A DNA stretch of 64,000 nucleotides from NCBI GenBank assembly GCA_016700315.1, contig CP065013.1, positions 257,449 through 321,448 of the forward strand, in the 5' to 3' direction. The notes below the pieces were generated by a model that was given only the letters and a program-made list of their open reading frames with translations, did no database searches and had not been told where the DNA came from. The translations under genes were made by a program, and so were the position numbers. The DNA is from Candidatus Saccharimonadota bacterium (lineage in GTDB: Bacteria > Patescibacteriota > Saccharimonadia > Saccharimonadales > SZUA-47). Shown piece after piece: positions 3,233-61,083 of the stretch. Within the stretch, counting starts at the first letter, position 1. The number at the start of each line of letters is the position of its first letter.

Positions 3233-3260
3233 TTTAGAATTTAGAGTTTAGGATTTAGAA
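3233..3260. repeat. Heptamer array TTTAGAA TTTAGAG TTTAGGA TTTAGAA within a 7-nt-periodic tract (about 3186-3297)
   Basis: Read directly. A near-identical array occurs inside the mutM coding region at 49454-49481. Confidence 0.9.
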
Positions 3261-7248: not shown

Positions 7249-7740
7249 TTATTTATTGTCTAAGCAAAGCACTGCGCCACCCTCTAGTGGTAGCATTAGA
7301 ACGTAATTCTTTGCTACAGCTCCAACGGCAGTTGAAGCTTCTTTATCGCAAATTCGACCAGTGACGTAGTAGATGGTTCCCACAGTGCTCACCGCATTAT
7401 CAGCCGTCCATGCAGCGGTAACCATATTTGAGCCAGTTGATGGGTCTTTGAGATTGACTCCGCTCAAGTAGCGAGAATGGAAACCACCACCTGTCAAAAT
7501 GCCCGTTGCCGCATTATTATCAGATGATGGGGGATTAGTCTGATTATTGCCAACAAAGGCATCTACCTCAACCTTGATACGGCCTGCTACGTTCTTCCTT
7601 GCAGTATTGCGCTGATTACGCTGCAACTGAGGAATTGCAACCAGAACAATCAGCATAATCAGCCCAGCTATCGCCAGCACGATCAATATCTCAATTATGG
7701 TAAAGGCTTTTTTTTCCTTCAAATCTACCTTTCCCGCCAA
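7249..7740 (-). CDS. Type IV pilin paralogue with Ala at the -1 cleavage position
   Basis: KEKKA|FTIIEILIVLAIAGLIMLIVLVAIPQLQRNQRNTARKN is highly similar at protein and DNA level to the neighbouring pilin. TTG start; an alternative TTG at 7722 has a GGAAAGG Shine-Dalgarno sequence. Confidence 0.85.
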   Translation of the reverse strand: MAGKVDLKEKKAFTIIEILIVLAIAGLIMLIVLVAIPQLQRNQRNTARKNVAGRIKVEVDAFVGNNQTNPPSSDNNAATGILTGGGFHSRYLSGVNLKDPSTGSNMVTAAWTADNAVSTVGTIYYVTGRICDKEASTAVGAVAKNYVLMLPLEGGAVLCLDNK

Positions 7741-7791
7741 GTGCGCTACATTAATCCTATGGAATCACCTAGCTAAAATTACGCTGCTCTT

Positions 7792-8289
7792 TTACTGATT
7801 ATCTAGACACTGGATGGCACCACCCTCAAGCTGTGTCCACATAGCGTATTGTCGTGCGGTTCCACCAGTCACAACAGACTCGCCGTTACAGGTACTTGAA
7901 GTCTGGTAGTTTATTCCACCAATTGCTGGAAGAGCAGCACCTGTAGGAATGCTTCCGGGAGAGGCACTACCGGCACCGGTTGTATACGTCAAGGACATAT
8001 TGGAGCCGCTTGATGGATCTTTCAGATTAACACCACTCAAATAACGTGTCGTTAGAGACGTCAGATCAGCCGCGCTGGCAGGGATATTACCGTTATTGTT
8101 CCCTGTGTATGAGTCAATTTCTGTTTTTATACGTCCTACTATGTTCTTTCTTGCTGTGTTTCTTTGGTTACGCTGCAACTGCGGTATGGCAATTAATACA
8201 ATCAGCATAATCAGACCAGCAATTGCTAGTACGATCATAACTTCGATGATTGTGAAGCCTTTTTTTAGTTGTTGTTTAGTGTGCCCCAT
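7792..8289 (-). CDS. pilA: Type IV major pilin candidate
   Basis: QQLKKG|FTIIEVMIVLAIAGLIMLIVLIAIPQLQRNQRNTARKN has canonical Gly-1/Phe+1/Glu+5. C-terminal Cys pair. Confidence 0.85.
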   Translation of the reverse strand: MGHTKQQLKKGFTIIEVMIVLAIAGLIMLIVLIAIPQLQRNQRNTARKNIVGRIKTEIDSYTGNNNGNIPASAADLTSLTTRYLSGVNLKDPSSGSNMSLTYTTGAGSASPGSIPTGAALPAIGGINYQTSSTCNGESVVTGGTARQYAMWTQLEGGAIQCLDNQ

Positions 8290-8386
8290 TAGATTTCCCC
8301 TTTATCTTAATAAGCTTATGTTAATTTATTGCGCTGTTCTTTGCAAGTATTCTTCAGTTTTACAGGTTGCGCTTACCAACCAAAAA

Positions 8387-9607
8387 CTACCTCAAAGCAC
8401 CACTGCCCACAAGCCCATAAATTGGCAGTAGAATCGCACCCACAATAACCAGCGATACAATTCCTAGAACTATCATCAAAACTGGCTCAATAACGGTCGA
8501 GATCGCTTTGACCTCATTATCAACTTCTTTTTCATAGTAAACAGCCGTGCGATCCAGCATCTGCTCTAAAGATCCGGAATCTTCACCAATTTTTATCATC
8601 TGCGGCACCAAATCCAAAAAGTAAGGGTCGCCACCTATAGACTCCGATAACGACTTGCCGCCTTTAACCTTTTCGGCTGCTTTGACCACTGATTCTTCTA
8701 TCAAAACATTGTCGATCGCCCTAGAAGTAACCTGCATTGTCTGGAGTAACGGCACACCGCTAGCAACAAGAGTAGTGCCGGTTCGAGTGAACCGCGCCAT
8801 GTAAAGCTTCTTAAACAAGCCACTTATCGGCCACATATTTAGCTTGGCTGTATCTATCGCCCGCTTTCCGCCCATAGTTCTGGCCCATCTTGTTGTAAAA
8901 AACGCAGCGATAGCTACTAGAATCAACACTAACCACCAAAATCTAATCGTAAAGTCTGAGATCGCAAGCAGCAACCTAGTCACGAAAGGTAAATTTGTAC
9001 CAGGAAGACCCTTATACAGCTCCTTTACTTGGGGCAACACGGCCACAACCATGAAACCAACCACTCCGCCCATCACCAACAACACAATCACCGGATAAAT
9101 CAGCGCCCCTCGCACTTTACTGGCCAGCTCAGCATCTTTTTCTTGCTGATTAGCTAGCCTCTCCAAAGCTTTGTCGAGTGTACCCGAAGTCTCACCAGCT
9201 GCAACCAGACTAGTATAGACCTGATTAAAAATGCTAGGGTGTTTTTCCAGTGAGACAGATAGCGCCTTACCGCCTTCGACATCGTTAATTACTTGTCCAA
9301 TAACAGCAGACAGTTTCTTGTTCTTAGTCTGAGACATAACTGTTCGTAAGCTCTGTACTAGAGGTAAACCAGCATTGATAAGCGTAGAAAGCTGGCGCGA
9401 AAAGATAACTTTATCTTTGGCTTTCACTCTATTTAAAAGCCGATCAACAATATTCGCATCACCTGCACCTTTTGGCGTCAGCTCTAGTACTGTCAGCCCC
9501 TGGGCCCGCACCATTTTTGTCGCAGAGTTTTCATTTTCAGCCTCAACACTGCCTTTAACTGCCTTGCCGCTAACCGCATCCTTCGCTGTATATCTATAAG
9601 TTACCAC
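8387..9607 (-). CDS. pilC: Type IV pilus platform protein (GspF/PilC family)
   Basis: Two GspF-type repeats, three TM segments, and position between pilT and the pilins. Confidence 0.9.
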   Translation of the reverse strand: MVTYRYTAKDAVSGKAVKGSVEAENENSATKMVRAQGLTVLELTPKGAGDANIVDRLLNRVKAKDKVIFSRQLSTLINAGLPLVQSLRTVMSQTKNKKLSAVIGQVINDVEGGKALSVSLEKHPSIFNQVYTSLVAAGETSGTLDKALERLANQQEKDAELASKVRGALIYPVIVLLVMGGVVGFMVVAVLPQVKELYKGLPGTNLPFVTRLLLAISDFTIRFWWLVLILVAIAAFFTTRWARTMGGKRAIDTAKLNMWPISGLFKKLYMARFTRTGTTLVASGVPLLQTMQVTSRAIDNVLIEESVVKAAEKVKGGKSLSESIGGDPYFLDLVPQMIKIGEDSGSLEQMLDRTAVYYEKEVDNEVKAISTVIEPVLMIVLGIVSLVIVGAILLPIYGLVGSGALR

Positions 9608-23775: not shown

Positions 23776-24514
23776 GTCAACATAAAAACCACGACCAAAG
23801 GTTTTTATGTTGACTTATAGGGGTAAGACTACTAACATGCGGGTATTATGGGCAGCGGGAATGCGAGAAAGATTAAGCCGAGCAGGCTCAGACCAAGGAG
23901 CCCTAGCAAGGAGCTTACTTCTAAAATAATTGAGTCCGTCTTGAGAGCTAGCGTTTTAGCTGGTTTTACCGCTTCTGCACTACTGATACCAAACTCTCCT
24001 ATCGCCCTAGAGAAACCAGTTAAATTCTTCCTAGATAAATTGGATCAGAAAGAAAAAGAGCGCCAAATCCGCCGCGTAATTACTGAGATGAAACGGCAAA
24101 AAATCGTCAAAGGAAGCTACGAACATGGTCTTGAGATAACCAATAAAGGACGCGAGCGACTAGCAAAACTAGATTACGACAAACTCGAGATATCTGAACC
24201 ACCTTCTTGGGATAAAAAATGGCGCATAGTACTCTTCGACATTCCTTTTAACAAAGATGAGAAACGTAGAGATTTGTCAGAGAAACTAAAACTAACTGGG
24301 TTTCAGTTACTCCAGCTTAGCGTATGGGTGCATCCGTACCCCTGCCGCGATGAACTAAACAAAATATGTGAGCACTTAGGTGTTGCTAAGTATGTTACCC
24401 TCATAGAAACTGCCCACATTGACCACGAAGAATTACTAAAAAAGCGCTTCAAAAATCTCAAATTACAGTAGTGTGTCAACATAAAAACCTTTGGTCGTGG
24501 TTTTTATGTCGTAC
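23776..24514. mobile_element. Single-gene cassette bounded by 35-bp perfect terminal inverted repeats, each itself a hairpin
   Basis: Left GTCAACATAAAAACC-ACGACCAAA-GGTTTTTATGTTGAC (23776-23814). Right GTCAACATAAAAACC-TTTGGTCGT-GGTTTTTATGTCGTAC (24475-24514). The loops are reverse complements, and 23780-23814 is the exact reverse complement of 24475-24509. Confidence 0.7.
23848..24471 (+). CDS. PaaX-like regulator (winged helix plus Cas2/VapD-fold C-terminal domain)
   Basis: WDKKWRIVLFDIPFNKDEKRRDLSEKLKLTGFQLLQLSVWVHP matches the PaaX C-terminal pattern (W..W.lv.f.ipe..R..R..L...GF..l..svWv.P). A wHTH-like region lies upstream. Confidence 0.65.
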   Translation: MGSGNARKIKPSRLRPRSPSKELTSKIIESVLRASVLAGFTASALLIPNSPIALEKPVKFFLDKLDQKEKERQIRRVITEMKRQKIVKGSYEHGLEITNKGRERLAKLDYDKLEISEPPSWDKKWRIVLFDIPFNKDEKRRDLSEKLKLTGFQLLQLSVWVHPYPCRDELNKICEHLGVAKYVTLIETAHIDHEELLKKRFKNLKLQ

Positions 24515-25215: not shown

Positions 25216-25311
25216 CGCCTCATTATACCTCACACTTGATACAAACTCTTTATTCGCAGGTGCTGTGACAGCTAAGCCATACAAAAAAGCGCGCAACGTT
25301 AAATTCGCAAA

Positions 25312-25716
25312 TTAGATTTTAGCAACAGGTAGTTCGGGCACTCTGCCAAAATCTGAATCTAGAGAAAGCAATAAACAATCGTACTCGAGTGTCAGAGCCG
25401 CGATCCACATATCGTTGGTATTGATTGGTGTGCCCTGCTGCTTAAGTTTTTTGAATATAGCGGCGAAGAGTTTGGTGGTTTTGTCACTGATCGTAACTGT
25501 ATTAACATTCGGCATGTCTAGAAACTTCTGGAGGAGTGCTTCGTTTTCTTTCGGCCTGTTTCCAAGTGCGAAGCCAGCTCTTAGCTCGCCAACGACAACA
25601 AGCGGCACTAAAACTTGCGAATCTGGCCGAAAATATTCACGCAAGCGGCCATCGCCTCTGTTGAATGCCGAATAAGCACTAGTATCAATCAGCAGTTTCA
25701 CTTTGCTCACTGCCAT
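25312..25716 (-). CDS. vapC: PIN-domain toxin VapC
   Basis: LLIDTSAYSAF N-terminal acidic motif with distal D residues, 134 aa, and a 10-nt overlap with the upstream antitoxin. Confidence 0.85.
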   Translation of the reverse strand: MAVSKVKLLIDTSAYSAFNRGDGRLREYFRPDSQVLVPLVVVGELRAGFALGNRPKENEALLQKFLDMPNVNTVTISDKTTKLFAAIFKKLKQQGTPINTNDMWIAALTLEYDCLLLSLDSDFGRVPELPVAKI

Positions 25717-25958
25717 AACTTTTTATCTATTTTAGACAAATCAGCAATCGCTTCGTCAAATGACCCATCAAGTGTGTTAGCTCCAAAAAGCCAATCGAAC
25801 CCAGTCTCAGCTTGAATCTGCGTAGTTCCGAAAGTTTGCATAGTTAACAAATCTACTACTGTCTGGTTAAAAGATTTTCCAGTTCTTTGAGAGCGCTTTT
25901 TTATAACCATGTCAACCGCTGGTGGTATATTCCTTATAGTGTATTGAATTTTACTCAT
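25707..25958 (-). CDS. vapB: VapB-type antitoxin (RHH/FitA-like)
   Basis: MSKIQYTIRNIPPAVDMVIKKRSQRTGKSFNQTVVDLL is a ribbon-helix-helix type N-terminus. Start moved to ATG 25956-25958. Confidence 0.75.
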   Translation of the reverse strand: MSKIQYTIRNIPPAVDMVIKKRSQRTGKSFNQTVVDLLTMQTFGTTQIQAETGFDWLFGANTLDGSFDEAIADLSKIDKKLWQ

Positions 25959-26026
25959 GTATACATTGTATGCAGTATATACACTTACGTCAATCCGCTG
26001 GATCAATACTGATGACTTACACGGCT

Positions 26027-26082
26027 CTTGATACTTTATCCCTGATACTTGATACTAGTTATTATGAGTTTACAGATTGGGA
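26027..26082 (+). repeat. 56-bp direct repeat, copy A: decayed duplicate of the ychF promoter-proximal region and first 6 codons
   Basis: CTTGATACTTTATCCCTGATACTTGATACTAGTTATTATGAGTTTACAGATTGGGA differs from copy B (28110-28165) at 3 of 56 positions. Confidence 0.92.
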
Positions 26083-26201
26083 CAGATACTGCGCAGCCCA
26101 ATTACCTTTTGTGCTAAGACTAACTATGCTACCGACGGATAGAGGTGATCGTAGCTATTCCAACGAACGTACTGTTAAGACAAATGAAGAGTTACAGACC
26201 T

Positions 26202-28088
26202 CTAGCTCTTAGGCTTACTGCGTAAAGCTTTCGTGATAGTACCGAAATTCTTTGCTAGGTCGTAATCACTCCGCCCAGCAACTATTGCCTCATAAATAGC
26301 GTCATCACCAGCAAGCTTTTTAAGCCTGTTATTGAGCTGTCTCATAATTGTTTTAGGATCTTTGTCATGTACACCATTCTGACTTGCGAAGTGACTAAGC
26401 TCTTGAGCGTCAGCAGGACGCTCTGACGGGTTAAAGAGCGGTAGTGTTTCTGGACGTACTTCACGCTGTCGTGCACGAAATGCACCACTTTGCTCGGAGA
26501 GCTCTATGACTCGTTGCTCACCAACTGCGTCTAGCGCTAAAATCTGTAGTTCGTAATCACTAAAAATTAGATTTTCGGCACTTCTCCAGCCAGGTATAGG
26601 TACTGTCCTTTTACCGTCGTAGTCAGCAATTATTACCTTAACACGATCTTGCTCAAAACCACCGCTTGCTTTGTCTAAAGCAAAAAGTGTAGCTACTTCT
26701 ACAGGATCCAGCTTTCCTCTCAGTTGATAAGCGATACTTAGAATATCCTCTGGCAAATGATAATCTTCAGGCATTTCTGGCAATTGTGCGGCTGCCTTGA
26801 GATATTCAGTTGTAGCGTTTTCACGGACACCTTCACGCCCAGACTTACTGAGCCGGGGATTTACAGAGGTACTTCTGATTAACCTTTGAACGTAGTCGGT
26901 CAGTCCAACAAATGCTTTTGTCTTTACCCTACTCGTTTCGAACAATTGCATAAGCTGTCCGACAGCTCGGACTTCTGTTCGGTCTAAATGTTCAATTGCT
27001 GAACCTGCGTCCTCACCTAGTGCCCACGTTGCATCAATAATGGTAGACACTGACGATCCATCTTTGTCTACAGTTACAAATGTATTCCAAGCGTGTCCAC
27101 TTCCTTCACCGGTGCTCGTACTAAAACCGTCTGCTCGTGAGTCAGCATAACCCGCACCGTCTTTACCTCCGCCGTAAACAGCATAAGTATTATTTAGCAT
27201 ACTTAGTTCGGTTTGTGTTGCCTTGAGAGCTTCAAATACAGCCTTTACGTTTGAGGCTACGTTTCTGCAAACGCCGTTACCCTTCCAATTAGGGTCTTTC
27301 CTGCTAGCTATGCCTTCTCTTAGTAACTCAGAAGTGGTTGACTGGTCAGCTCTTGATAAATCTTTTAAGCCAATGTCCTCGTAGGTGTACCGTGAGACAC
27401 TTTGAACAAACGCAGCACTAAGCTTTACCGCTTGTTCGGGAGTCAAGTGACTTAATGAACGAATCTTTAGACTCTCTACTAACTGTTGACCGCTTTTGTC
27501 GTTTTGGAGGTAGTGAGCAAGGACAGTACGCAACTCCGTTTGCCAGCCTTCTTCCTCTACTGTATTGCGATAGGTGTGGTCGCCATTGCCACAGTCAGTT
27601 AGTGACGCTTCCAAGTAATCAGGCACAGGGTACGTTTCGCGGCTTGGTGCTACTTTAGGATTGTAGTGCTCAAGGGTCGTAAAACTAGCAAATGCTGTGT
27701 CTGTCATCTCAATGTGAGCTAAAGAACGTGTATGAACCGTCTCCAATGTACGCATTCGTTCCAGGCTATCGTGCAACGCTAACTCAACGTCCTTACCAGC
27801 ACCTACTACTTCTTTTTTTGTTCTACCTTCCTGTGAACCTGAGCCAATAATAATTCTGTGCTCACCCTCAGGGGTCCTGCCTATGAACTGTTCATCAGCG
27901 CGATAAAAATGCCCTGCCGATACTACAACACCTGATAAACCAACACGTCCAATAGCAGGTATGGCACCACTTTGTTCGGTTGGTAATTGATCTGGGCTTA
28001 TTAGAGGCTTTTGTTCTAGTACTGCGGTCATAGTTTTTATTTTTGCTTTACTCTCTGTTATCTTATCAAATAACTTGACAAATGTCAA
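26202..28088 (-). CDS. Transglutaminase-like (Cys-His-Asp) domain protein, 628 aa
   Basis: NGVCRNVASNVKAVFEAL (nucleophile Cys), GSGHAWNTFVTV (His) and IIDATW (Asp) occur in the order and spacing of the transglutaminase-core cysteine protease fold. No signal peptide seen. Confidence 0.65.
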   Translation of the reverse strand: MTFVKLFDKITESKAKIKTMTAVLEQKPLISPDQLPTEQSGAIPAIGRVGLSGVVVSAGHFYRADEQFIGRTPEGEHRIIIGSGSQEGRTKKEVVGAGKDVELALHDSLERMRTLETVHTRSLAHIEMTDTAFASFTTLEHYNPKVAPSRETYPVPDYLEASLTDCGNGDHTYRNTVEEEGWQTELRTVLAHYLQNDKSGQQLVESLKIRSLSHLTPEQAVKLSAAFVQSVSRYTYEDIGLKDLSRADQSTTSELLREGIASRKDPNWKGNGVCRNVASNVKAVFEALKATQTELSMLNNTYAVYGGGKDGAGYADSRADGFSTSTGEGSGHAWNTFVTVDKDGSSVSTIIDATWALGEDAGSAIEHLDRTEVRAVGQLMQLFETSRVKTKAFVGLTDYVQRLIRSTSVNPRLSKSGREGVRENATTEYLKAAAQLPEMPEDYHLPEDILSIAYQLRGKLDPVEVATLFALDKASGGFEQDRVKVIIADYDGKRTVPIPGWRSAENLIFSDYELQILALDAVGEQRVIELSEQSGAFRARQREVRPETLPLFNPSERPADAQELSHFASQNGVHDKDPKTIMRQLNNRLKKLAGDDAIYEAIVAGRSDYDLAKNFGTITKALRSKPKS

Positions 28089-28109
28089 TATGCTTATGTA
28101 TTAAACATA

Positions 28110-28165
28110 CTTGATACTTTATCCCTCATACTTGATACTAGTTATTATGAGTTTATCGATTGGGA
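28110..28165 (+). repeat. 56-bp direct repeat, copy B: functional ychF 5' region
   Basis: See copy A. Contains the heptamer array GATACTT TATCCCT CATACTT GATACTA and the ychF ATG at 28147. Confidence 0.92.
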
Positions 28166-30470: not shown

Positions 30471-31244
30471 TTAACGCAAGCTTTTTAGCATATAAAATCG
30501 CTCGACGTTTCCTTTGCTACCGGCAAGTCCAGAATCAGCTTTGTCAACTATTTTGAACAAATTTTGTACCCAGCTTTCGAAGTCGTGAATAATTTCGCGA
30601 CGAACTTTGCTATTTTTGATTACACCCCTGTTAATTTGCTCCTTGCCTGCTTCAAACTGAGGCTTGAGCATAGCTATGATTAATGTTTTGTTATTAACGA
30701 ATAAAGAGATGTGAGGTAGTATTTTTCGCATCGAAATAAAGCTCACGTCAATCACTACTATGTCTGGTACTTCGGAGAGTACTACTCTTCGTTCCTCGTT
30801 CTTCGTTCCTCGTTCTATTTGGCTACTTTGTAGCCAAATCTCACGAATATCAGTCTTTTCGTGCAGTTCAATTTTGGGATTTCCTAACAGTGTTGGGTGA
30901 AGTTGATCCGTGCCAACATCAACTGCAACAACTTTACTAGCACCATTTTGCAGTGCAAAATCCGTGAAGCCTCCCGTGCTACTGCCCACGTCCAAAACGA
31001 CTTTATTTGTAAAATCTAGCCCTAGCTCTCTCGCTACAGAAGCCAGCTTCTCGCCTGCTCGTGATACGTACTTTCCTGCTGTAGCTGAAACTACAATTTT
31101 GTCACTAGCTGAAACCTCGAAAGCCGGTTTTGTAATAACATTACCGTTAACTCGCACCGTGCCGCGCTTAATCAAATCCTCGGCCCTAGACCGCGACTGA
31201 GTCTTGCCTGACAAAAATAAAACTTGATCAAGCCGCCGCTTCAT
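30471..31244 (-). CDS. tlyA: TlyA-family 16S/23S rRNA (cytidine-2'-O)-methyltransferase
   Basis: N-terminal S4 domain (RLDQVLFLSGKTQSRSRAEDLIKRGTVRVNG) and FtsJ-type SAM motif VLDVGSSTGGFTD. Confidence 0.88.
   Translation of the reverse strand: MKRRLDQVLFLSGKTQSRSRAEDLIKRGTVRVNGNVITKPAFEVSASDKIVVSATAGKYVSRAGEKLASVARELGLDFTNKVVLDVGSSTGGFTDFALQNGASKVVAVDVGTDQLHPTLLGNPKIELHEKTDIREIWLQSSQIERGTKNEERRVVLSEVPDIVVIDVSFISMRKILPHISLFVNNKTLIIAMLKPQFEAGKEQINRGVIKNSKVRREIIHDFESWVQNLFKIVDKADSGLAGSKGNVERFYMLKSLR
30787..30839. repeat. Intragenic module inside tlyA: heptamer array (CTTCGTT CCTCGTT)x2 plus adjacent 9-bp-stem hairpin ATTTGGCTA-CTTTG-TAGCCAAAT
   Basis: Read directly. Translated in frame as WLQSSQIERGTKNEERRVV. 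Confidence 0.9.
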
Positions 31245-33169: not shown

Positions 33170-33543
33170 TTAAAGAATCTTTTCACCGTTAACCTTTATG
33201 AGTTTTATTAAAGCCGCTTTTAGTTCTTCTACTTTTGATATTAACTCTGCTTCCAAAACGCTAGAAAGGTAGTTTGTTTTTTTGATATTCCTATCTGAGC
33301 TTCTAGTTCAAATAATGAGCCGAGTGCATGTCGATAAAACTGCTCTTTCTCTCTGGCACTTCTTCTGCCAAAGCCTTCTGCGATATTAGATGGCAAAGAT
33401 ACAGCAGCTCGTCTCATTTGCGAAATCAAGCCAAAAACTTCTTCTTTAGGAAAAGCCGAAGTAACTTGGTAGACACTCAGACAAATAGACTCCGAAATCT
33501 GCCAAACCCTTAAGTCTTTAAAGGACTTTATCGTCGTACTCAT
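33170..33543 (-). pseudogene. Four-helix-bundle protein gene with a -1 frameshift in an A7 run (or homopolymer sequencing error), between ssb and rpsR
   Basis: LRVWQISESI...SQMRRAAVSLPSNIAEGFGRRS...ALGSLFELEAQ is the family signature. After the A7 run (T7 at 33277-33283 on the plus strand) the +1 frame stays open for 37 codons (KTNYLSSVLEAELISKVEELKAALIKLIKVNGEKIL-stop at 33170-33172), restoring a typical ~124-aa length. Confidence 0.6.
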
Positions 33544-34880: not shown

Positions 34881-34910
34881 TCGTCACTCCTTTCTTCTGC
34901 GAAGAAACGA

Positions 34911-34988
34911 GTTAGTAGTTAGTAGTTGGTAGTTGGTAGTTAGTAGCCTCATGAGCTACCATCTACCATCTACCTTCTACCTTCTACC
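34911..34988 (-). promoter_or_regulatory. Long imperfect hairpin in the rpsF leader built from two inverted heptamer arrays
   Basis: GTTAGTAGTTAGTAGTTGGTAGTTGGTAGTTAGTAGC (34911-47), a 7-nt loop, then GCTACCATCTACCATCTACCTTCTACCTTCTACC (34955-88). Hand pairing gives runs of 5-7 bp separated by mismatches roughly once per heptamer unit. Confidence 0.6.
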
Positions 34989-35114
34989 GACCTGTAACTT
35001 CTTTCGGTTTCTAGGTTAGGCGCACCAGAGGCCCCAACCAAGAAGTTAATTAATATTAAATATAGTATAAAGTATTATGAATAAAGTATCAAGTGCTAAG
35101 TGCTAACAAATGCG

Positions 35115-43675: not shown

Positions 43676-44383
43676 CTAGATATCTTCAATAGTTTTAGCA
43701 TCTTTTACTTCATAGCCTCCGATTTTCGTACGTCGAAGCTCAAGACAGTAAGCACCCGTACCAAGTTCTTTGCCAATATCTTCCGCAAGGGTACGAATGT
43801 ATGTGCCGCTGGAGACATGGGCACGTACTTTTATTTCTGGCCAGACGTACTCAAGCAGCTCCAGGCTATAAATCGTTACTTGGCGTGGTTTCAGTTCGAC
43901 TTTTTTGCCCGCCCTAGCAAGCTCATAAGCCTTTTTGCCGTTAACCTTGATAGCCGAATACTGCGGCGGCACCTGCGTGATCTCACCAACAAACTTAGCT
44001 AGCGCCTTTTGTACCTCTTCAGTAGATGGTAGATGGTAGTTAGTAGTTGGAGTGGCTTCTCTTCGTTCATCGTTCAGCATCCCTCGTTCTGTGATTTCCC
44101 CTTCCGGATCACCGGTCGTCGAGACAGCCCCAAGTCGAAAAGTCGCCTCATAGACCTTATCTTGCTTCATAAACTCGTCCTGACGCTTCGTGGCACTGCC
44201 AATCAGGATTATCAGCAGCCCCGTAGCAAAAGGATCGAGCGTGCCACTGTGGCCTACTTTTAGTTTCTGTTTACCGTTTACTGAGGACTGAGGACTATTT
44301 TTTCGTAAATCAGAGCGGATTTTGGCCACCACATCAAAACTAGTCCACCCCGATGGTTTATCTATCAGAATTACTTGATCCAT
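43676..44383 (-). CDS. truB: tRNA pseudouridine(55) synthase
   Basis: KVGHSGTLDPFATGLLIILIG catalytic Asp motif, and QVPPQYSAIKVNGKKAYELAR. Confidence 0.92.
   Translation of the reverse strand: MDQVILIDKPSGWTSFDVVAKIRSDLRKNSPQSSVNGKQKLKVGHSGTLDPFATGLLIILIGSATKRQDEFMKQDKVYEATFRLGAVSTTGDPEGEITERGMLNDERREATPTTNYHLPSTEEVQKALAKFVGEITQVPPQYSAIKVNGKKAYELARAGKKVELKPRQVTIYSLELLEYVWPEIKVRAHVSSGTYIRTLAEDIGKELGTGAYCLELRRTKIGGYEVKDAKTIEDI
44022..44088. repeat. Intragenic heptamer arrays inside truB: GTAGATG GTAGATG GTAGTTA GTAGTTG (44022-49) and CTTCGTT CATCGTT CAGCATC CCTCGTT (44061-88)
   Basis: Read directly. Translated in frame as ERGMLNDERREATPTTNYHLPST. The E. coli TruB sequence as I recall it is about 14 residues shorter here. 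Confidence 0.85.
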
Positions 44384-45026
44384 CCAAAAACTCCTGCTGA
44401 ATCAATTCCCCAATTTCCGTACGGTATTCGCCTAAGGCATTACGACACACTAAAGTTGCCATGGTTGATATATCTTCAACGCAAAATTCAGCAACTCTGC
44501 TACTTTCGATACTACGAGTGTCTGTAACACCGGCCAGTACAAAACTGACTCTAAAGAGATTACGTCTAGTGTAAACGCCCGTACCCCCTACCTCACTGAC
44601 TACGCCAGGTTGGTTGGGTACGGGTGGCAGTAGCGCTTCTAGGCCTTCGTTGACTATGTCAAAAGTCGGAAAAGCTTCGCCTTTTACGACTCTTGATCGC
44701 CAGCTGTAATGTCGGCTACCTTTCGAAGCTTGCTCGCCTTTTTCAGCGATAATCTCCGAGCCGCTATTAATAATTATCTCTTTGACTTTATCATCAGTAA
44801 CCCCAGCCCGTCTTAAATAGCCAGCTATGCAAGCAATTAGGGTCGTATCGCTACCGTAAGACATGTTGAATAGTTTTAATCTAGGATCATCATGCTCAGG
44901 CCTCTGTTTTATATCGCCGCTCCAAGCGGCGATAAGGATGTCACCGTGACCAAAATACCCATATTCAATATTTCTATCAACTCCAAAATTTGTAGGGGGC
45001 AACTGCCTCCTTAACCTCTCATACAT
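44358..45026 (-). CDS. Hypothetical protein (222 aa)
   Basis: Coding-like ORF that overlaps the truB start by 26 nt. No motif recognised. Confidence 0.55.
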   Translation of the reverse strand: MYERLRRQLPPTNFGVDRNIEYGYFGHGDILIAAWSGDIKQRPEHDDPRLKLFNMSYGSDTTLIACIAGYLRRAGVTDDKVKEIIINSGSEIIAEKGEQASKGSRHYSWRSRVVKGEAFPTFDIVNEGLEALLPPVPNQPGVVSEVGGTGVYTRRNLFRVSFVLAGVTDTRSIESSRVAEFCVEDISTMATLVCRNALGEYRTEIGELIQQEFLDGSSNSDR

Positions 45027-47248: not shown

Positions 47249-47632
47249 ATGCCAATTATCAAATCAGCCAAGAAGCGCGTCAAAGTTGCCCGTAAAGCTA
47301 CTGTCAGAAACGCTAAAACCAAGAAAAGCGTACGAGGTGCACTAAAGGCTTTTGCCAGCGCAGTGTCTGGCAAAAAAGCCGTTTCATCTAGCCGCAGCAA
47401 GGCCCAAAGTGCCATCGACAAGGCAGTCAAAAAAGGTGTAATGAGCAAAAAGCGTGCAGCACGTAAAAAAAGCCAGCTGAGCAAATCCGCCAAAGCTAGC
47501 GGTGCCAAAGTTGAGAAGCGCTCTGCCCCAAAGAAAACTCAGCTCAAAAAAGCTAGCGTCAAGAAAGCCGCTCCAAAGAAATCTACAGCCAAAAAACCAG
47601 CTGCCAAAAAAGTTTCTGCAAAGAAAAAATAG
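47249..47632 (+). CDS. rpsT: 30S ribosomal protein S20 with Lys/Ala-rich C-terminal extension
   Basis: MPIIKSAKKRVKVARKATVRNAKTKKSVRGALKAF followed by a ~45-aa KKAAPKK-type tail. Confidence 0.9.
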   Translation: MPIIKSAKKRVKVARKATVRNAKTKKSVRGALKAFASAVSGKKAVSSSRSKAQSAIDKAVKKGVMSKKRAARKKSQLSKSAKASGAKVEKRSAPKKTQLKKASVKKAAPKKSTAKKPAAKKVSAKKK

Positions 47633-47676: not shown

Positions 47677-48591
47677 TTAGAAGCCAACGATTAGGGTTCT
47701 TAGTGCCTCATCAATGTCATAACTAGATGTTTTAGCGCGGTATTCAATATCTACAAGATCGGCAGCAACCGCTTTTATATCTTTAAGTGTCATGTTTCTA
47801 CTCAAACTTAGTGCCTTCTCAGCTGAATAAGGGCTTAGTCGGGCTTTGCGCGCCAGATTACTTGCCGAACTTTCGCCGCTAGTTTTGGCAAGAGCAATTT
47901 GATGAAGTTGCCAGCCTATCATACTCAAAATCGCAAAAGGTTCAACCTTTTGCGCACGCTGCTGCTCATAAAGCTCCAGGGCCTTCTTGTGCTGGCCCGA
48001 AAAAGCCGCACTCAAAAGATCAAAAATGCTGCTCTCAGGCGTTGGGTCAGTCAAAAGATGAATTGACTCCCGGTTAATATCAGTCGAATAAGTCGCCAGC
48101 TTGTCTATCTCTTGCGCTAGCAAGCTCTGATCACCACCAACCCTTTCAATCAAATATTGCGCATCGGCAGGACTCAGGCTGGCTTTGCGCTCACGGGCTT
48201 CTTCTACACACCAGCTCGCTATGTTGGCACTTTGTGCGGCCCCATGCTCGCGGAACTCAGGCCGTTTTTTCAAAGTCTTATAGTAAACCGAACGTTTGTC
48301 CAACTTACCTTCGACCAGCAAAAGGTCATTACCACCTTCTGCAGCATGTAGAACCTGCTCAACGTTATCTGCTATTTCTTTGTTTTCGCTTCCGCGGCGC
48401 AATACTACTAGTTTCTTGCTAGCCAAAAACGGCAAGCTATTGAGAGCTCCTATCACATCATTGACAGTGGTATCTTCCCCCTCGAAACGTTCTAGTGAAA
48501 GGTCACCAAACTTTTCCAAAAACCTAGCACAAACCTTGTCGGCCGCTTGTTTGATTGCCCAACCATTCTCCCCGCAAAGTATAGTAACCAT
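47677..48591 (-). CDS. holA: DNA polymerase III delta subunit
   Basis: Length and the N-terminal pattern (...LPFLASKKLVVLR...) fit HolA. C-terminal helical domain. Confidence 0.72.
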   Translation of the reverse strand: MVTILCGENGWAIKQAADKVCARFLEKFGDLSLERFEGEDTTVNDVIGALNSLPFLASKKLVVLRRGSENKEIADNVEQVLHAAEGGNDLLLVEGKLDKRSVYYKTLKKRPEFREHGAAQSANIASWCVEEARERKASLSPADAQYLIERVGGDQSLLAQEIDKLATYSTDINRESIHLLTDPTPESSIFDLLSAAFSGQHKKALELYEQQRAQKVEPFAILSMIGWQLHQIALAKTSGESSASNLARKARLSPYSAEKALSLSRNMTLKDIKAVAADLVDIEYRAKTSSYDIDEALRTLIVGF

Positions 48592-58374: not shown

Positions 58375-61083
58375 TCATAGCTCCCCCCATGTTTTACCGG
58401 TGGATATGTCTACACGCAGTTTTACGCCCAGCTCTGGATAAATATTTTCCATAGTCTGCTTCATCATTTTGCCAACCCGCTCAGCATCAGCTTCGGCACA
58501 TTCAACCAAAATACTGTCATGTATCTGCAATATCTGTCTCGGCTCTTCCTCGTTCCTCGTTCCTCGTTCCTCGTTCCAGTGTCTAAATTGGCTTTCTAAT
58601 TTAGACATTGCCATCTTGGTTATATCAGCAGCGCCTCCCTGAATTGGCATATTGATTGCGGCCCGCAAAGCTGCCTCACGTACGACAAAATTGCTGCTCC
58701 GAGCATCCGGCGTTGGGCGGCGACGTCCGAGCGGCGTCTCCACAAAACCTTTGTTTTTGGCTTGGTCACGAAAACGCTCCATCATTGCCTTCAGTTTGGG
58801 GCGCACCTCGAAGTATTTATCGATAAACTTTTTGGAATCGGCGTAGCTCATGCCCGTTCCTTCACTGAGTCCGTGAACACCTTGCCCATACAAAATACCG
58901 AAATTAACAGCTTTGGCCGCGTAGCGCATCTCTTTGCTGACTTCTTCGGGCTTGACACCTTGAACCAAAGCGGCCGTCTCGATATGAATGTCTCGATCAG
59001 AGTTAAACGACTCAATCATTGCTTGATCACCGCTCAGTGCCGCGGCAATGCGAAGCTCAAACTGACTGTAGTCGGCACTCACCAATACATTGCCAGGCTC
59101 GGCGATAAAGCCAGTTCTGATCTCTCGACCAATTTCGGTGCGGATAGGAATGTTCTGCAAGTTGGGATCGTTGCTACTAAGCCGGCCAGTTGCTGCGACC
59201 GTCAGCGCCAGTGTTGTATGTATACGATTGTTCTCATCTACCTGCTCTGGCAGCGTATCTACGTAGGTACTTTTGAGCTTTGTGTACTCACGATATTTCT
59301 CGATATCGTTGATGATCGGGTGAAGGTCTTTTAGTTTAGCGAGTACGTTACTGGCTGTGCTGAAGTGGCCAGCCTTCCCTTTCTTGCTTGCGATTGTAGG
59401 CAAGTTTAGCTTCACAAACAAAATATCACTCAGCTGGCTAGGACTTGAGATATTAAACTCTTGGTCGGCATAGCCATAAATTGTTTGTTCAATGTCACTA
59501 ATTTGATCTGTTAACTTGTCAGATAAAACCTTGAAAAAGCTTGGCTCAATCTTCACCCCAGTACGCTCAATTCGAGCTAAGACTGGTATCACTGGCCAGT
59601 CCACTTGCTCGGCCATTTTGATCAAACTTGTAACCTCGCTCATTTGCTCACCCTGTCGCTCAGCAAGCCCCCGGATCACAGCGCAGATTTCTGGTAGCTT
59701 AATTAGCGCTTCATCATCATCAATATTGTCGAGCTCACCAGCGTAGTTTAGATCCTCGCTCGCAAGCGCCGTAAGCGAAAAATCTCGCCTCAGAGAATTA
59801 ACAATAAATGCGCCAACTTGTGTGTCGTGGCTTACCTGCGGCAAGTTTTCTATCCCAAGCTCGAGTAAAATTTGAAAGATATTCTTTAAATCGTGCCCGG
59901 TAACGGCTTTGCCGTTTAGTAGTTGGTCGATGGTAGATGGTAGATGGGAATTAGCTACTGATTTTCTTAAATCAAAAATATAGCAATTTGTTTTGTCAGA
60001 TAGCGCCAAAACAGTTGGCTCGTGACCGTGCTTACCACTGCTGCGAGCAAAAATTACTACATCCCCTTCAAGCTGCAGCGATGACACTGCGGAGCTCTCC
60101 TGAACGTAGACAGGTGTCGGGGTTTTGAGATCGAGGATTGCCGCACTTATGTTTGACGAAAGGTCATTTGTCGATTCTGCAACTGCTACTTTGGACGAAT
60201 CACTACGCATTCCTTGTGGCAAGTTGCGCAGCAGGCTCCTGAACTCTAGGCGCTTTAGTATGCTTGCCAGCTCATTCGTATCTAGCTTATTTATGTCCAT
60301 TTGTTCAAGGTCCAGCTCGATTGGCGCATCTGCGTAAAGTCGAGCAATTTCTTTACTCATGTAGGCCGAATCTCGCCCCGCTTCAAGCTTTTTCTGTACT
60401 GCGCCCTTGGTGAGAGCAACATTCTCGTAAACACCATCGAGAGTTTTGTATTGTTTAAGTAGTTCAACCGCTGTTTTTTCACCAATGCCAGGAACACCGG
60501 GAATGTTGTCCGACGAATCGCCTTTTAGAGCTTTTAAGTCCAGAAATTGCTCAGGCTCGAGGCCGTATTTATCACGAAATTGTTCTGGCCGATAAAGCTC
60601 GATATTTGTTAGTCCTTTTTTGAGCGCATAGACATGGGTGTTCTCGCTAATGCACTGCAGTGCATCAAGATCACTGGTGATTAGCATTGTCTCTAACCCG
60701 GCGGCATCAGCTTTTTTAGCCAGGCCACACATAATATCGTCTGCCTCGTAATCATCGAGTTCGTATAGCGGCCAATTTAGTGCTCTTAGCAGCTCGTGAA
60801 GAATAGGAATTTGTACATAAAAGTCTGGCGGTGCCGGCTTTCGTCCTGCCTTGTAGTCTGGGTAGACGGCTAGTCGTTTTCGGATATTGGTTTTTGGTTT
60901 ATCCCAAGCTACACAAACATAATCTGGTTTGAGCCGCTTAATCAGCTCCAGCGCCATTGCTGCGAAGCCATAAACTCCCCCTGTTGGCGTCCCGTCGGCG
61001 GTCGAAAGCCCCGGCATCGCGTAATAGCCACGGTAAAAGACTGACTTTCCGTCGATAATCGCAAGTTTTTTTCTACTCTCCAT
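58375..61083 (-). CDS. polA: DNA polymerase I
   Basis: 5'-nuclease domain, DYSQFELRIAA (motif A), KAVNFGILYGQG (motif B) and QIHDSILVE (motif C). Confidence 0.94.
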   Translation of the reverse strand: MESRKKLAIIDGKSVFYRGYYAMPGLSTADGTPTGGVYGFAAMALELIKRLKPDYVCVAWDKPKTNIRKRLAVYPDYKAGRKPAPPDFYVQIPILHELLRALNWPLYELDDYEADDIMCGLAKKADAAGLETMLITSDLDALQCISENTHVYALKKGLTNIELYRPEQFRDKYGLEPEQFLDLKALKGDSSDNIPGVPGIGEKTAVELLKQYKTLDGVYENVALTKGAVQKKLEAGRDSAYMSKEIARLYADAPIELDLEQMDINKLDTNELASILKRLEFRSLLRNLPQGMRSDSSKVAVAESTNDLSSNISAAILDLKTPTPVYVQESSAVSSLQLEGDVVIFARSSGKHGHEPTVLALSDKTNCYIFDLRKSVANSHLPSTIDQLLNGKAVTGHDLKNIFQILLELGIENLPQVSHDTQVGAFIVNSLRRDFSLTALASEDLNYAGELDNIDDDEALIKLPEICAVIRGLAERQGEQMSEVTSLIKMAEQVDWPVIPVLARIERTGVKIEPSFFKVLSDKLTDQISDIEQTIYGYADQEFNISSPSQLSDILFVKLNLPTIASKKGKAGHFSTASNVLAKLKDLHPIINDIEKYREYTKLKSTYVDTLPEQVDENNRIHTTLALTVAATGRLSSNDPNLQNIPIRTEIGREIRTGFIAEPGNVLVSADYSQFELRIAAALSGDQAMIESFNSDRDIHIETAALVQGVKPEEVSKEMRYAAKAVNFGILYGQGVHGLSEGTGMSYADSKKFIDKYFEVRPKLKAMMERFRDQAKNKGFVETPLGRRRPTPDARSSNFVVREAALRAAINMPIQGGAADITKMAMSKLESQFRHWNEERGTRNEEEPRQILQIHDSILVECAEADAERVGKMMKQTMENIYPELGVKLRVDISTGKTWGEL
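58548..58607. repeat. Intragenic module inside polA: perfect (CCTCGTT)x4 plus adjacent 10-bp-stem hairpin TGTCTAAATT-GGCTTTCT-AATTTAGACA
   Basis: Read directly. Translated in frame as KLESQFRHWNEERGTRNEEEPRQ, just upstream of motif C. Confidence 0.92.
59917..59951. repeat. Second intragenic heptamer array in polA: TAGTAGT TGGTCGA TGGTAGA TGGTAGA TGGGAAT
   Basis: Read directly. Same unit family as the truB and rpsF-leader arrays. Translated as ANSHLPSTIDQLL. Confidence 0.85.

Follow-up and report, generated by a model that had tools for sequence, protein, structure and literature searches.

Hairpin-anchored heptanucleotide array as an in-frame insertion in tlyA of a Saccharimonadales bacterium, within a genome-wide class of period-7 repeats

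The rRNA methyltransferase gene tlyA of a Saccharimonadales bacterium, located on the minus strand, at 30471-31244 of the 64,000-nt stretch analysed here (contig CP065013.1, positions 257,449 to 321,448; hereafter the window), carries a short module composed of a perfect hairpin and an array of 7-nt units. As judged from orthologue comparisons, the segment is a true lineage-specific in-frame insertion of 17-18 codons, added in a surface loop of an essential enzyme. It is part of a period-7 class that pervades this genome and is present at lower density in other Saccharimonadales. The best reading, to which we give a probability of about one half, is that a hairpin-anchored heptanucleotide repeat has grown by slippage and template switching and is passively translated in a tolerant loop.

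TlyA, a 16S/23S rRNA 2'-O-methyltransferase of 257 aa, was identified from its open reading frame (ORF), its Pfam and PDB matches and an AlphaFold2 (AF2) model. Pfam assigns an N-terminal S4 domain (5e-13) and an FtsJ-type Rossmann methyltransferase domain (1e-33), whereas a PDB sequence search gives the TlyA structures 3hp7 and 7s0s as its closest solved relatives (E ~1e-29), and TlyA structures also top the Foldseek matches of the model, which has a predicted local distance difference test score (pLDDT) of 86. Both domains, together with the likeness in sequence and fold to solved TlyA, place the protein in this family. It is identical to QQS65189.1, encoded in a 988,272-bp genome of Saccharimonadales (Saccharibacteria, Candidate Phyla Radiation (CPR)).

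Regarding the module, the inserted segment comprises the 18 codons W137-V154, that is, 54 nt (estimates of 51-54 nt) at 30783-30836 on the minus strand, with each end uncertain by one or two codons. The plus strand reads CTTCGTT CCTCGTT CTTCGTT CCTCGTT at 30787-30814, then CT and then the hairpin, just as an earlier sequence-only reading of the window had described. Tandem Repeats Finder (TRF) reports this array at 30786-30816 with an exact period of 14, 2.2 copies and 100% matches, thus as an exact doubling of a 14-nt double unit; in the coding sense it is AACGAGG AACGAAG repeated twice, encoding ERGTKNEERR. The presence of a hairpin was correctly noted before, but not its dimensions: instead of 9 bp and a 5-nt loop, it has a perfect 10-bp stem and a 3-nt loop, ATTTGGCTAC-TTT-GTAGCCAAAT, with 23 nt at 30817-30839, its outer ATT being the codon of I136, and folding as DNA with z = -7.5. 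Array and hairpin together encode WLQSSQIERGTKNEERRVV, residues 137-155 (W137-V155) of the product, which is the translation that had been quoted. The insert maps to the crossover between strands β3 and β4 of the Rossmann fold, and the lowest-pLDDT block of the model (residues 141-150, pLDDT 55) lies within it; the question whether it occupies a surface loop is thus probably to be answered positively, as far as a predicted structure can tell. The model also hints at a small β-hairpin-like protrusion at the insert, IWL...VVL.

The insertion status was evaluated by the length of the segment between the EKTDIR and DVSFIS motifs in 80 orthologous loci from species-representative Saccharimonadales genomes (labels such as L001, L086 and L176 refer to the relatives' loci compared with the window). 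Of these loci, 58 have a segment of 13-14 residues, one has 15 residues and the other 21 have 20-60, compared to 31 in the window. Likewise, HMMER alignments to the three best solved TlyA, 3hp7, 7s0s and 3opn, leave a gap of 12-15 residues exactly at the insert, in agreement with the statement in the sequence-only reading that other TlyA proteins run nearly straight from strand β3 into DVSFIS. The closest other species, L086, whose TlyA is 70% identical (57-61% for other species), has no insert, and a codon-by-codon comparison with it delimits the extra piece W137-V154, essentially the hairpin plus the array. A metagenome scan for relatives closer than L086 gave nothing above 60% identity.

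As a neighbor-joining tree of TlyA only was too star-like, a species tree of EF-P, YchF and FtsK (1169 columns, 100 bootstraps) was used in its place. The window and L086 are grouped with 100% bootstrap, and both fall within a 100% clade with two more insert-free species. Together with the orthologue comparison formerly proposed as a check, the tree supports a lineage-specific insertion. Fitch parsimony over 49 taxa, 12 of them insert-bearing, infers a root without the insert and requires 10 changes or more, so that the tlyA loop has gained or lost inserts many times.

Within the species, the insert is stable. All 12 full-length variants aligned from the protein cluster (98-100% identity) have 257 aa, keep the insert and have a constant number of array units, with T147M as the sole change in the insert. 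A phase-variable contingency locus was ruled out by this shared length and insert, and an assembly artefact by the identical protein being called on 15 contigs; in addition, assemblies made independently at NCBI, ENA and Logan contain near-identical variants with this insert.

Other peculiarities of this region of TlyA were also noticed. In L086, the 33 residues past the loop (PDLILVDVSFISVRMILAHIAEQMSAKSELVVM) share only ~42% identity with the window, compared to 70% overall, and the deviation from the Saccharimonadales consensus in this part is on the side of L086, not of the window. The loop inserts of other species include a perfect palindrome with a 20-bp stem (L063), an 11-bp stem (L047), a 47-residue insert with the inverted ends GCTTTC..GAAAGC (L001) and a GC-rich insert encoding AGPAARST that is common to L005 and L036.

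The sequence-only reading overlooked that tlyA is one case of a period-7 phenomenon found throughout the genome, between genes as well as within them. TRF yields 24 period-7 rows in the window, whereas 0.65 are expected from dinucleotide shuffles (~37-fold), and exact and degenerate scans of periods 4-15 find only period 7 enriched, besides its multiple 14. The 14-mer family of tlyA, allowing up to two mismatches, occurs seven times (0.42 expected). The eight strongest arrays are split evenly, with four between genes and four within them (tlyA, truB and twice in polA). Moreover, the same unit families recur at unlinked loci: AACGAGG/AACGAAG in tlyA, polA and, degenerate, in truB; GTAGATG/GTAGTTG at 34910, 34956 (reverse complement), 44022 and 59919; and TTTAGAA at 3233 and 49454. 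Outside tlyA, the heptamer density is 3.75 per 10 kb in the window, and it is 0.67 per 10 kb in insert-bearing genomes compared to 0.22 per 10 kb in the baseline ones (p = 0.003).

As 7 mod 3 = 1, a heptamer array is read in all three frames and gives a cyclic 7-residue peptide, and the same logic accounts for ERGTKNEERR in tlyA, NEERGTRNEEE in polA and ERGMLNDERRE in truB. The genic arrays always have a stop-free orientation, whereas most intergenic units have stops on both strands, which amounts to a clear filtering by translation.

The second host gene is polA (902 aa, 58375-61083, minus strand), assigned by Pfam and PDB alignment. Its first array, TTCCTCG x4.6 by TRF at 58546-58577 (AACGAGG in the coding sense, encoding NEERGTRNEEE), adds ~12 residues before the QIHDS motif compared to Taq polymerase; the loop has 43 aa in the window, whereas 67 of 120 Saccharimonadales fragments have the baseline length of 31 aa. 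It is accompanied by a hairpin with a 10-bp stem, TGTCTAAATT-8 nt-AATTTAGACA, at 58580-58607, which encodes MSKLESQFRH and aligns with a native helix of insert-free PolA. The former claim that polA has an array of the same family with an adjacent hairpin is therefore correct (58546-58607 for both), although the hairpins of tlyA and polA are unrelated in sequence. A second polA module, at 59902-59947, consists of the 6-bp hairpin AACGGC-TTT-GCCGTT, TA and the array GTAGTTG GTCGATG GTAGATG GTAGATG (coding sense CCATCTA). The third host gene, truB (235 aa, 43676-44383, minus strand, Pfam TruB_N), has two adjacent in-frame arrays at 44022-44089 and no hairpin, with ~13 extra residues compared to 1sgv: CCAACTA/CCATCTA x4 (44022-50) and a degenerate array of GAACGAG (44061-89), which together encode TERGMLNDERRE.ATPTTNYHLPST.

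Between genes, the module upstream of rpsF (34891-34991, TRF, fold z = -6.1) is composed of the hairpin TTTCTTC-TGC-GAAGAAA, the array AGTTAGT x5, a spacer and the inverted array CTACCAT x5, forming one long stem-loop; in the mRNA sense, the array at 34907-34947 reads TAACTAC/TAACCAA. Degenerate CCCTAAT/CCCTAGA heptamers precede the longest perfect array, CTCTAAC x6.3 at 114-157, which is located ~70 nt upstream of the sole tRNA gene (229-300).

The arrays are associated with hairpins. A perfect hairpin of at least 7 bp is found within 8 nt of 5 of the 23 arrays (0.57 expected, P < 0.0005), and the window has 10 perfect hairpins with stems of at least 10 bp compared to 0.73 in shuffles. At the tlyA site, a stem of at least 6 bp is present in 6 of 35 insert-bearing species and in one of 92 baseline sequences, and in four species the hairpin starts 21 or 22 nt after the first base of the EKTDIR codons. 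The window has ATTTGGC[TAC-AAA-GTA]GCCAAAT followed by AACGAGG/AACGAAG; L176 has GTTTGGC-CAC-GCCAAAC and then GAGCAAN x8; L175 has CTCTGGT-TGG-ACCAGAG and then AGNGTCA x5; and L080 has TGTTCGCC-TAA-GGCGAACA and then CAAAATG x3-4, while L044 keeps a decayed version. The window hairpin shares 6 of 7 stem pairs and the codon offset with L176, which is a distant relative. In the aligned stems, 94% of the cells are paired and 5 of 7 pairs are changed on both sides, a covariation score reached by none of 500 shuffles, with the sequences of both the tlyA and the polA sets having been picked for having the hairpin. In polA, stems of 8-10 bp cover the same codons in the window, L089, L090 and L092, with 5 of 10 pairs changed, and residue pairs co-vary so that the palindrome persists, such as L/K versus I/Y. 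The following arrays are AACGAGG in the window, GGGAGAA in L089, a 14-nt period in L090 and ATGGAAA in L092; the insert-free L093 has neither hairpin nor array. The hairpins are thus gene-specific and common to different species at the same codon position, whereas the array units differ between species.

Some candidate explanations for the hairpins were also discarded. A quasipalindrome of the native HEKTDIR codons, CACGAA-N10-TTCGTG, located just upstream of the insert, was rejected as a native hot spot, its pairing being 3.09 of 6 in insert-bearing species compared to 3.71 of 6 in baseline species (p = 0.98). A dispersed hairpin family was rejected for tlyA, as no second copy of its hairpin occurs in the 64 kb even with up to three mismatches, and a known RNA family or terminator was rejected in view of no Rfam match (gathering score or E <1) and no terminator-like site.

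Changes in unit number can be seen between close relatives. In a 20-kb comparison with five strains at 97.7-98.5% nucleotide identity to the window, the intergenic array AAGTGCT x2.3 at 35091-35106 shows a 7-nt gap, corresponding to one unit, in three of them (L081, L083 and L084); the other arrays of these 20 kb have no unit difference between strains and window. At the rpsF leader, the orthologous L086 site has CTATCAA x3.6, a drifted unit with a different copy number. The locus L022 has 13 period-7 arrays in 11.6 kb, with near-identical (GGATTTT)n-spacer-(AAAATCC)n elements at 7640-9000 between nearly all genes of the rpsF-ssb-rpsR region. In its tlyA loop, the native D-I-R codons GAC ATT AGA form part of the array unit, and an inverted copy of the array comes next; an array plus inverted array is also present in the tlyA loops of L006, L009 and L044. 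Seeding of the unit from a hairpin arm or a native flank is clear only in L022, perhaps also in L080 and L006, and is unconvincing for the tlyA and polA modules of the window.

From these observations, we infer a mode of origin in which a hairpin-forming palindrome would stall replication. The nascent strand would then realign in 7-nt or 14-nt steps (slippage), creating and resizing the array, or copy itself or the opposite arm (template switching), generating inverted array copies and carrying a change of one arm onto the other, so that the palindrome would stay perfect. Such events would arise everywhere, and essential genes would keep only those with a total length divisible by three, a unit free of stops in any coding-strand frame and a tolerant surface connector, which for tlyA would be the β3 to β4 crossover. 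The charged ERGTKNE peptide would be translated passively as a floppy loop, with no need for a function of its own, hence presumably neutral. As summarised in PMC4679880 and PMC4692102, Mrazek (2007) found heptamers to be the most abundant long simple sequence repeat (SSR) class in many bacteria and proposed a polymerase-footprint slippage model for them; the preference for heptamers in the window agrees with this general pattern, and the footprint idea may apply to these arrays as well. Template switching is known to render quasipalindromes perfect (PMC7202029) and can thereby mimic compensatory evolution.

Several features do not fit easily with this slippage and template-switching origin. 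The AACGAGG unit (NEERGTR) occurs in three unlinked genes, a recurrence that is not expected from local independent seeding; either the arrays would be homogenised or dispersed within the genome, or translation would let only a very narrow range of units pass. L176 has almost the same tlyA stem as the window, though the window insert is derived on the tree, pointing to inter-lineage transfer or repeated precise loss. In addition, the covarying stems could reflect selection for structure instead of self-correction, the native CACGAA..TTCGTG hairpin is no stronger in insert-bearing species, most modules have no clear unit seeding from their flanks, and the period of 7 is left unexplained. The recurrence of AACGAGG, the L176-like stem and the unexplained period keep alive two competitors, a mobile cassette and a selected structure.

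In the former, hairpin and array would be inserted as a unit by a small mobile or horizontally spreading cassette, behaving like a Rickettsia palindromic element (RPE), a repetitive extragenic palindrome (REP) or a MITE (miniature inverted-repeat transposable element), either through a hairpin-recognising enzyme (for example, a Y1/HUH transposase of the IS200 type or of the REP-associated tyrosine transposase (RAYT) type) or through the spread of insert-bearing alleles among Saccharimonadales via natural transformation and homologous recombination. This is possible but rather unlikely. It agrees with the at least 10 gains or losses in one loop on the species tree, with a derived window insert whose hairpin has the codon offset and almost the sequence of the one in the distant L176, with the loose relation of the tlyA units (consensus GAGNNAN) and with one unit family being shared by tlyA, polA and truB. 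The joint presence or absence of hairpin and array in polA and the dispersed L022 elements between genes point in the same direction, as do Y1_Tnp genes within 10 kb of tlyA in the insert-bearing L176, L044 and L036 and in no baseline Saccharimonadales locus, and the intragenic REPs and RPEs documented elsewhere, including in replication and repair genes (PMC3733652, PMC10969869). However, the hairpins are wholly different between the sites of this genome, that of tlyA being single-copy in the 64 kb, and gene-specific hairpins with species-differing arrays oppose the transposition of a unit, but not its spread by recombination. Moreover, terminal inverted repeats and target duplications are absent, the polA hairpin is made of codons that align with a native helix, tblastn detects no Y1 transposase in the window, and the whole TlyA follows the species tree (70% to L086 versus 57-61% to others).

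The selected structure would be a functional nucleic-acid element within the coding sequence, where the hairpin, as DNA or mRNA, and the repeat platform are under selection and the peptide is a by-product; we consider it improbable. Its conceivable roles range from processing or stabilising the mRNA and pausing the ribosome to binding a protein or controlling replication. Compensatory changes keep the stems in two genes (5 of 7 pairs in tlyA, 5 of 10 in polA), with amino acids co-varying to preserve the polA palindrome (L/K versus I/Y), arrays and inverted arrays flank the genes of the rpsF-ssb-rpsR operon in both the window and L022, and heptamers upstream of ribosomal-protein genes have been proposed as regulatory (PMC4679880). 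Nevertheless, the hairpin is kept in only 6 of 35 insert-bearing species and most orthologues are without the whole module, the sequences analysed for covariation were chosen for having it, and template-switch self-correction yields the same covariation with no function involved (PMC7202029). The array units are also too diverse for a single binding specificity, and there is neither an Rfam match nor a terminator signature. At the protein level, an adaptive extension of the TlyA loop, contacting for example a CPR-specific feature of the ribosome, would make the repeat character incidental. The insert is indeed fixed, with one substitution among 12 strain variants, and the model suggests the small protrusion IWL...VVL, but unrelated sequences of 0-47 extra residues occupy this loop across species, the peptide is exactly heptamer-encoded and recurs in polA and truB, conservation is at the level of nucleotide pairing and not of the peptide, and the closest species, L086, manages without it; such an adaptation is therefore very improbable.

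A bolder and tentative proposal, which we regard as less probable than the slippage and template-switching origin, is that the modules form an undescribed class of Saccharimonadales hairpin-anchored heptamers that colonise conserved loops of essential genes and operon spacers, with the hairpin actively maintained, as its compensatory changes across species would show, and the unit reset in each genome. If so, a dedicated mechanism would operate rather than generic slippage, either a hairpin-recognising enzyme (of the HUH/Y1 type or a CPR-specific factor of replication or repair) or selection acting on the structure of the DNA or RNA, and insert-bearing alleles would spread between lineages by natural transformation.

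Compared to known systems, the insert is closest to the heptanucleotide long simple sequence repeats (LSSR) or cyanobacterial short tandemly repeated repetitive sequences (STRR) and to the TAACTGA repeats of Beggiatoaceae in its working and appearance, while its effect on genes is like that of RPEs and intragenic REPs. LSSR/STRR (Calothrix/Nostoc; Xanthomonas GGGAATC, PMC4692102) are likewise tandem 7-nt units with an over-represented period 7, in several dispersed families including some inverted pairs able to form stem-loops; their length varies between close relatives, and slippage is the proposed cause. The window shares the excess of head-to-tail period-7 units, the recurrence of unit families at unlinked loci and, at 35091-35106, the unit-number polymorphism between close strains. 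It differs in location, because LSSR/STRR are described as essentially intergenic and here half of the strongest arrays (4 of 8) are in frame in core enzymes, in the anchoring of many arrays to a perfect hairpin conserved with compensatory changes at orthologous codons, and in its host, a CPR bacterium; our literature search returned no report of such repeats in Saccharibacteria or elsewhere among CPR bacteria. TAACTGA repeats, known from Beggiatoaceae, Cyanobacteria and Bacteroidetes (PMC4679880), are also heptamers in 2-6 copies immediately upstream of starts, including those of ribosomal-protein operons, with a few copies inside ORFs and only in the stop-free orientation, as here; the rpsF-leader unit of the window, TAACTAC/TAACCAA in the mRNA sense, is close to TAACTGA. 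Nevertheless, one unit dominates there and the genic copies are at protein termini or in hypothetical proteins (PMC4679880), whereas here many units occur in internal loops of conserved enzymes and with associated hairpins.

The parallel with RPEs drawn by the sequence-only reading holds for behaviour and not for membership in an RPE-like mobile family. RPEs are palindromic DNA in frame in unrelated housekeeping genes, at fold-compatible positions and with an added peptide (PMC10969869), and the tlyA insert is likewise palindromic (10-bp stem, z = -7.5), keeps the frame and sits at a tolerant site of a housekeeping gene, in the lowest-pLDDT block of the model. However, RPEs have a length of ~150 bp (~100-150 bp as a class) and form ten sequence families in Rickettsia, each with a conserved peptide (PMC10969869), whereas the insert here has 54 nt (51-54 nt), is more than half microsatellite, and has a hairpin that is unique in the window and unrelated to that of polA, with only the microsatellite part recurring in polA and truB within the 64 kb. 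Gene-specific hairpins with species-differing units are the opposite of the pattern that a transposing unit would show.

Intragenic REPs (GTAG/CGTC-tagged and RAYT-linked, PMC3733652) are palindromes of 20-40 bp with stems of 5-13 bp, often in inverted pairs and sometimes genic, with dimers that encode 20-30 residues and with replication and repair genes as notable hosts. The tlyA hairpin, with 23 nt, a 10-bp stem and a 3-nt loop, falls within their range (20-40 bp, 5-13 bp stem, 2-20 nt loop; PMC3733652). Nonetheless, REPs are high-copy conserved families with an unpaired GTAG/CGTC tag, whereas here the flanks are TCT and CTC, the GTAG of GTAGCCAAAT is inside the stem, and neither a second copy of the hairpin nor a RAYT or other Y1_Tnp (tblastn) is found in the 64-kb window, although Y1_Tnp genes lie near tlyA in L176, L044 and L036. 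Regarding MITEs, the module consists of one internal hairpin and a direct array, and no terminal inverted repeats or target duplication are seen against the empty L086 site, in a comparison at 72-80% nucleotide identity that gives no base-level resolution.

Quasipalindrome template-switch mutagenesis (PMC7202029) also makes or keeps inverted repeats perfect, with paired arm changes in the absence of selection, but it is known as a mechanism of point-mutation hot-spots in Escherichia coli, phage T4 and yeast (PMC7202029), and not described as a source of long-lived coding hairpins with adjacent microsatellites. The in-frame tandem repeats of Borgs (PMC9879509) are similar in being rapidly evolving and in adding disordered, low-complexity protein segments. 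They differ in the unit, which here has 7 nt and is read in all three frames, so that only three-unit changes keep the frame. Genic Borg units are reportedly multiples of three.

To our knowledge, heptamers are the commonest long bacterial microsatellites, and we know of no explanation for the period of 7 or for the spread of the arrays. Here, they are seen in an ultra-small CPR genome, within essential genes and tied to hairpins that covary across species. With presence or absence at orthologous codons, gene-specific hairpins versus species-differing units and a one-unit strain polymorphism, this is a compact natural system that can be used to pit slippage, template-switching and enzyme-driven models against each other, and its interest would rise if a dedicated mechanism proves to maintain the hairpin. 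The modules also represent a route for minimal genomes to gain new charged, disordered protein loops, account for length-variable regions that confuse the alignment and annotation of CPR proteins, and offer markers for strain typing.

Other features of the window and of the related loci deserve mention. The Y1 transposase gene of L176 (13640-14372, 204 aa, PF01797, with a weak REP_Tyr_transpos match), which has homologues near tlyA in L044 and L036, is flanked by inverted copies of the hairpin repeat AGAGGAC(T/A)GTCCTCT in a REPtron-like layout. A link between this transposase and the modules was rejected: the gene is near tlyA in three relatives but does not occur in the window, and the hairpins on its flanks bear no relation to the modules. 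In the window, perfect palindromes with 9-10 bp stems occur inside ORFs with no adjacent heptamer array (44912-44934, 47350-47375 and 47932-47954), and a dispersed intergenic palindrome family, ACATAAAAACC...GGTTTTTATGT, has stems of 11-16 bp at 2077-2112, 23776-23814 and 24479-24509, one copy preceding a T-run in a terminator-like manner. Five conspecific strains lack a segment of ~2.9 kb (25246-28134) that carries the gene of a PIN-type toxin (25312-25716), a small upstream ORF and the gene of a hypothetical protein with 628 aa; this last gene is bracketed, near the right end of the segment, by a direct repeat of 56 nt (26027-26082 and 28110-28165; copies 95% identical), which is a duplicate of the 5' end of the ychF-like gene. 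Lastly, between ssb and rpsR there is an ORF of 100 aa (33241-33543, minus strand) that belongs to the 23S_rRNA_IVP family (PF05635), and a second copy of this family is present further along the strain loci according to their gene tables.

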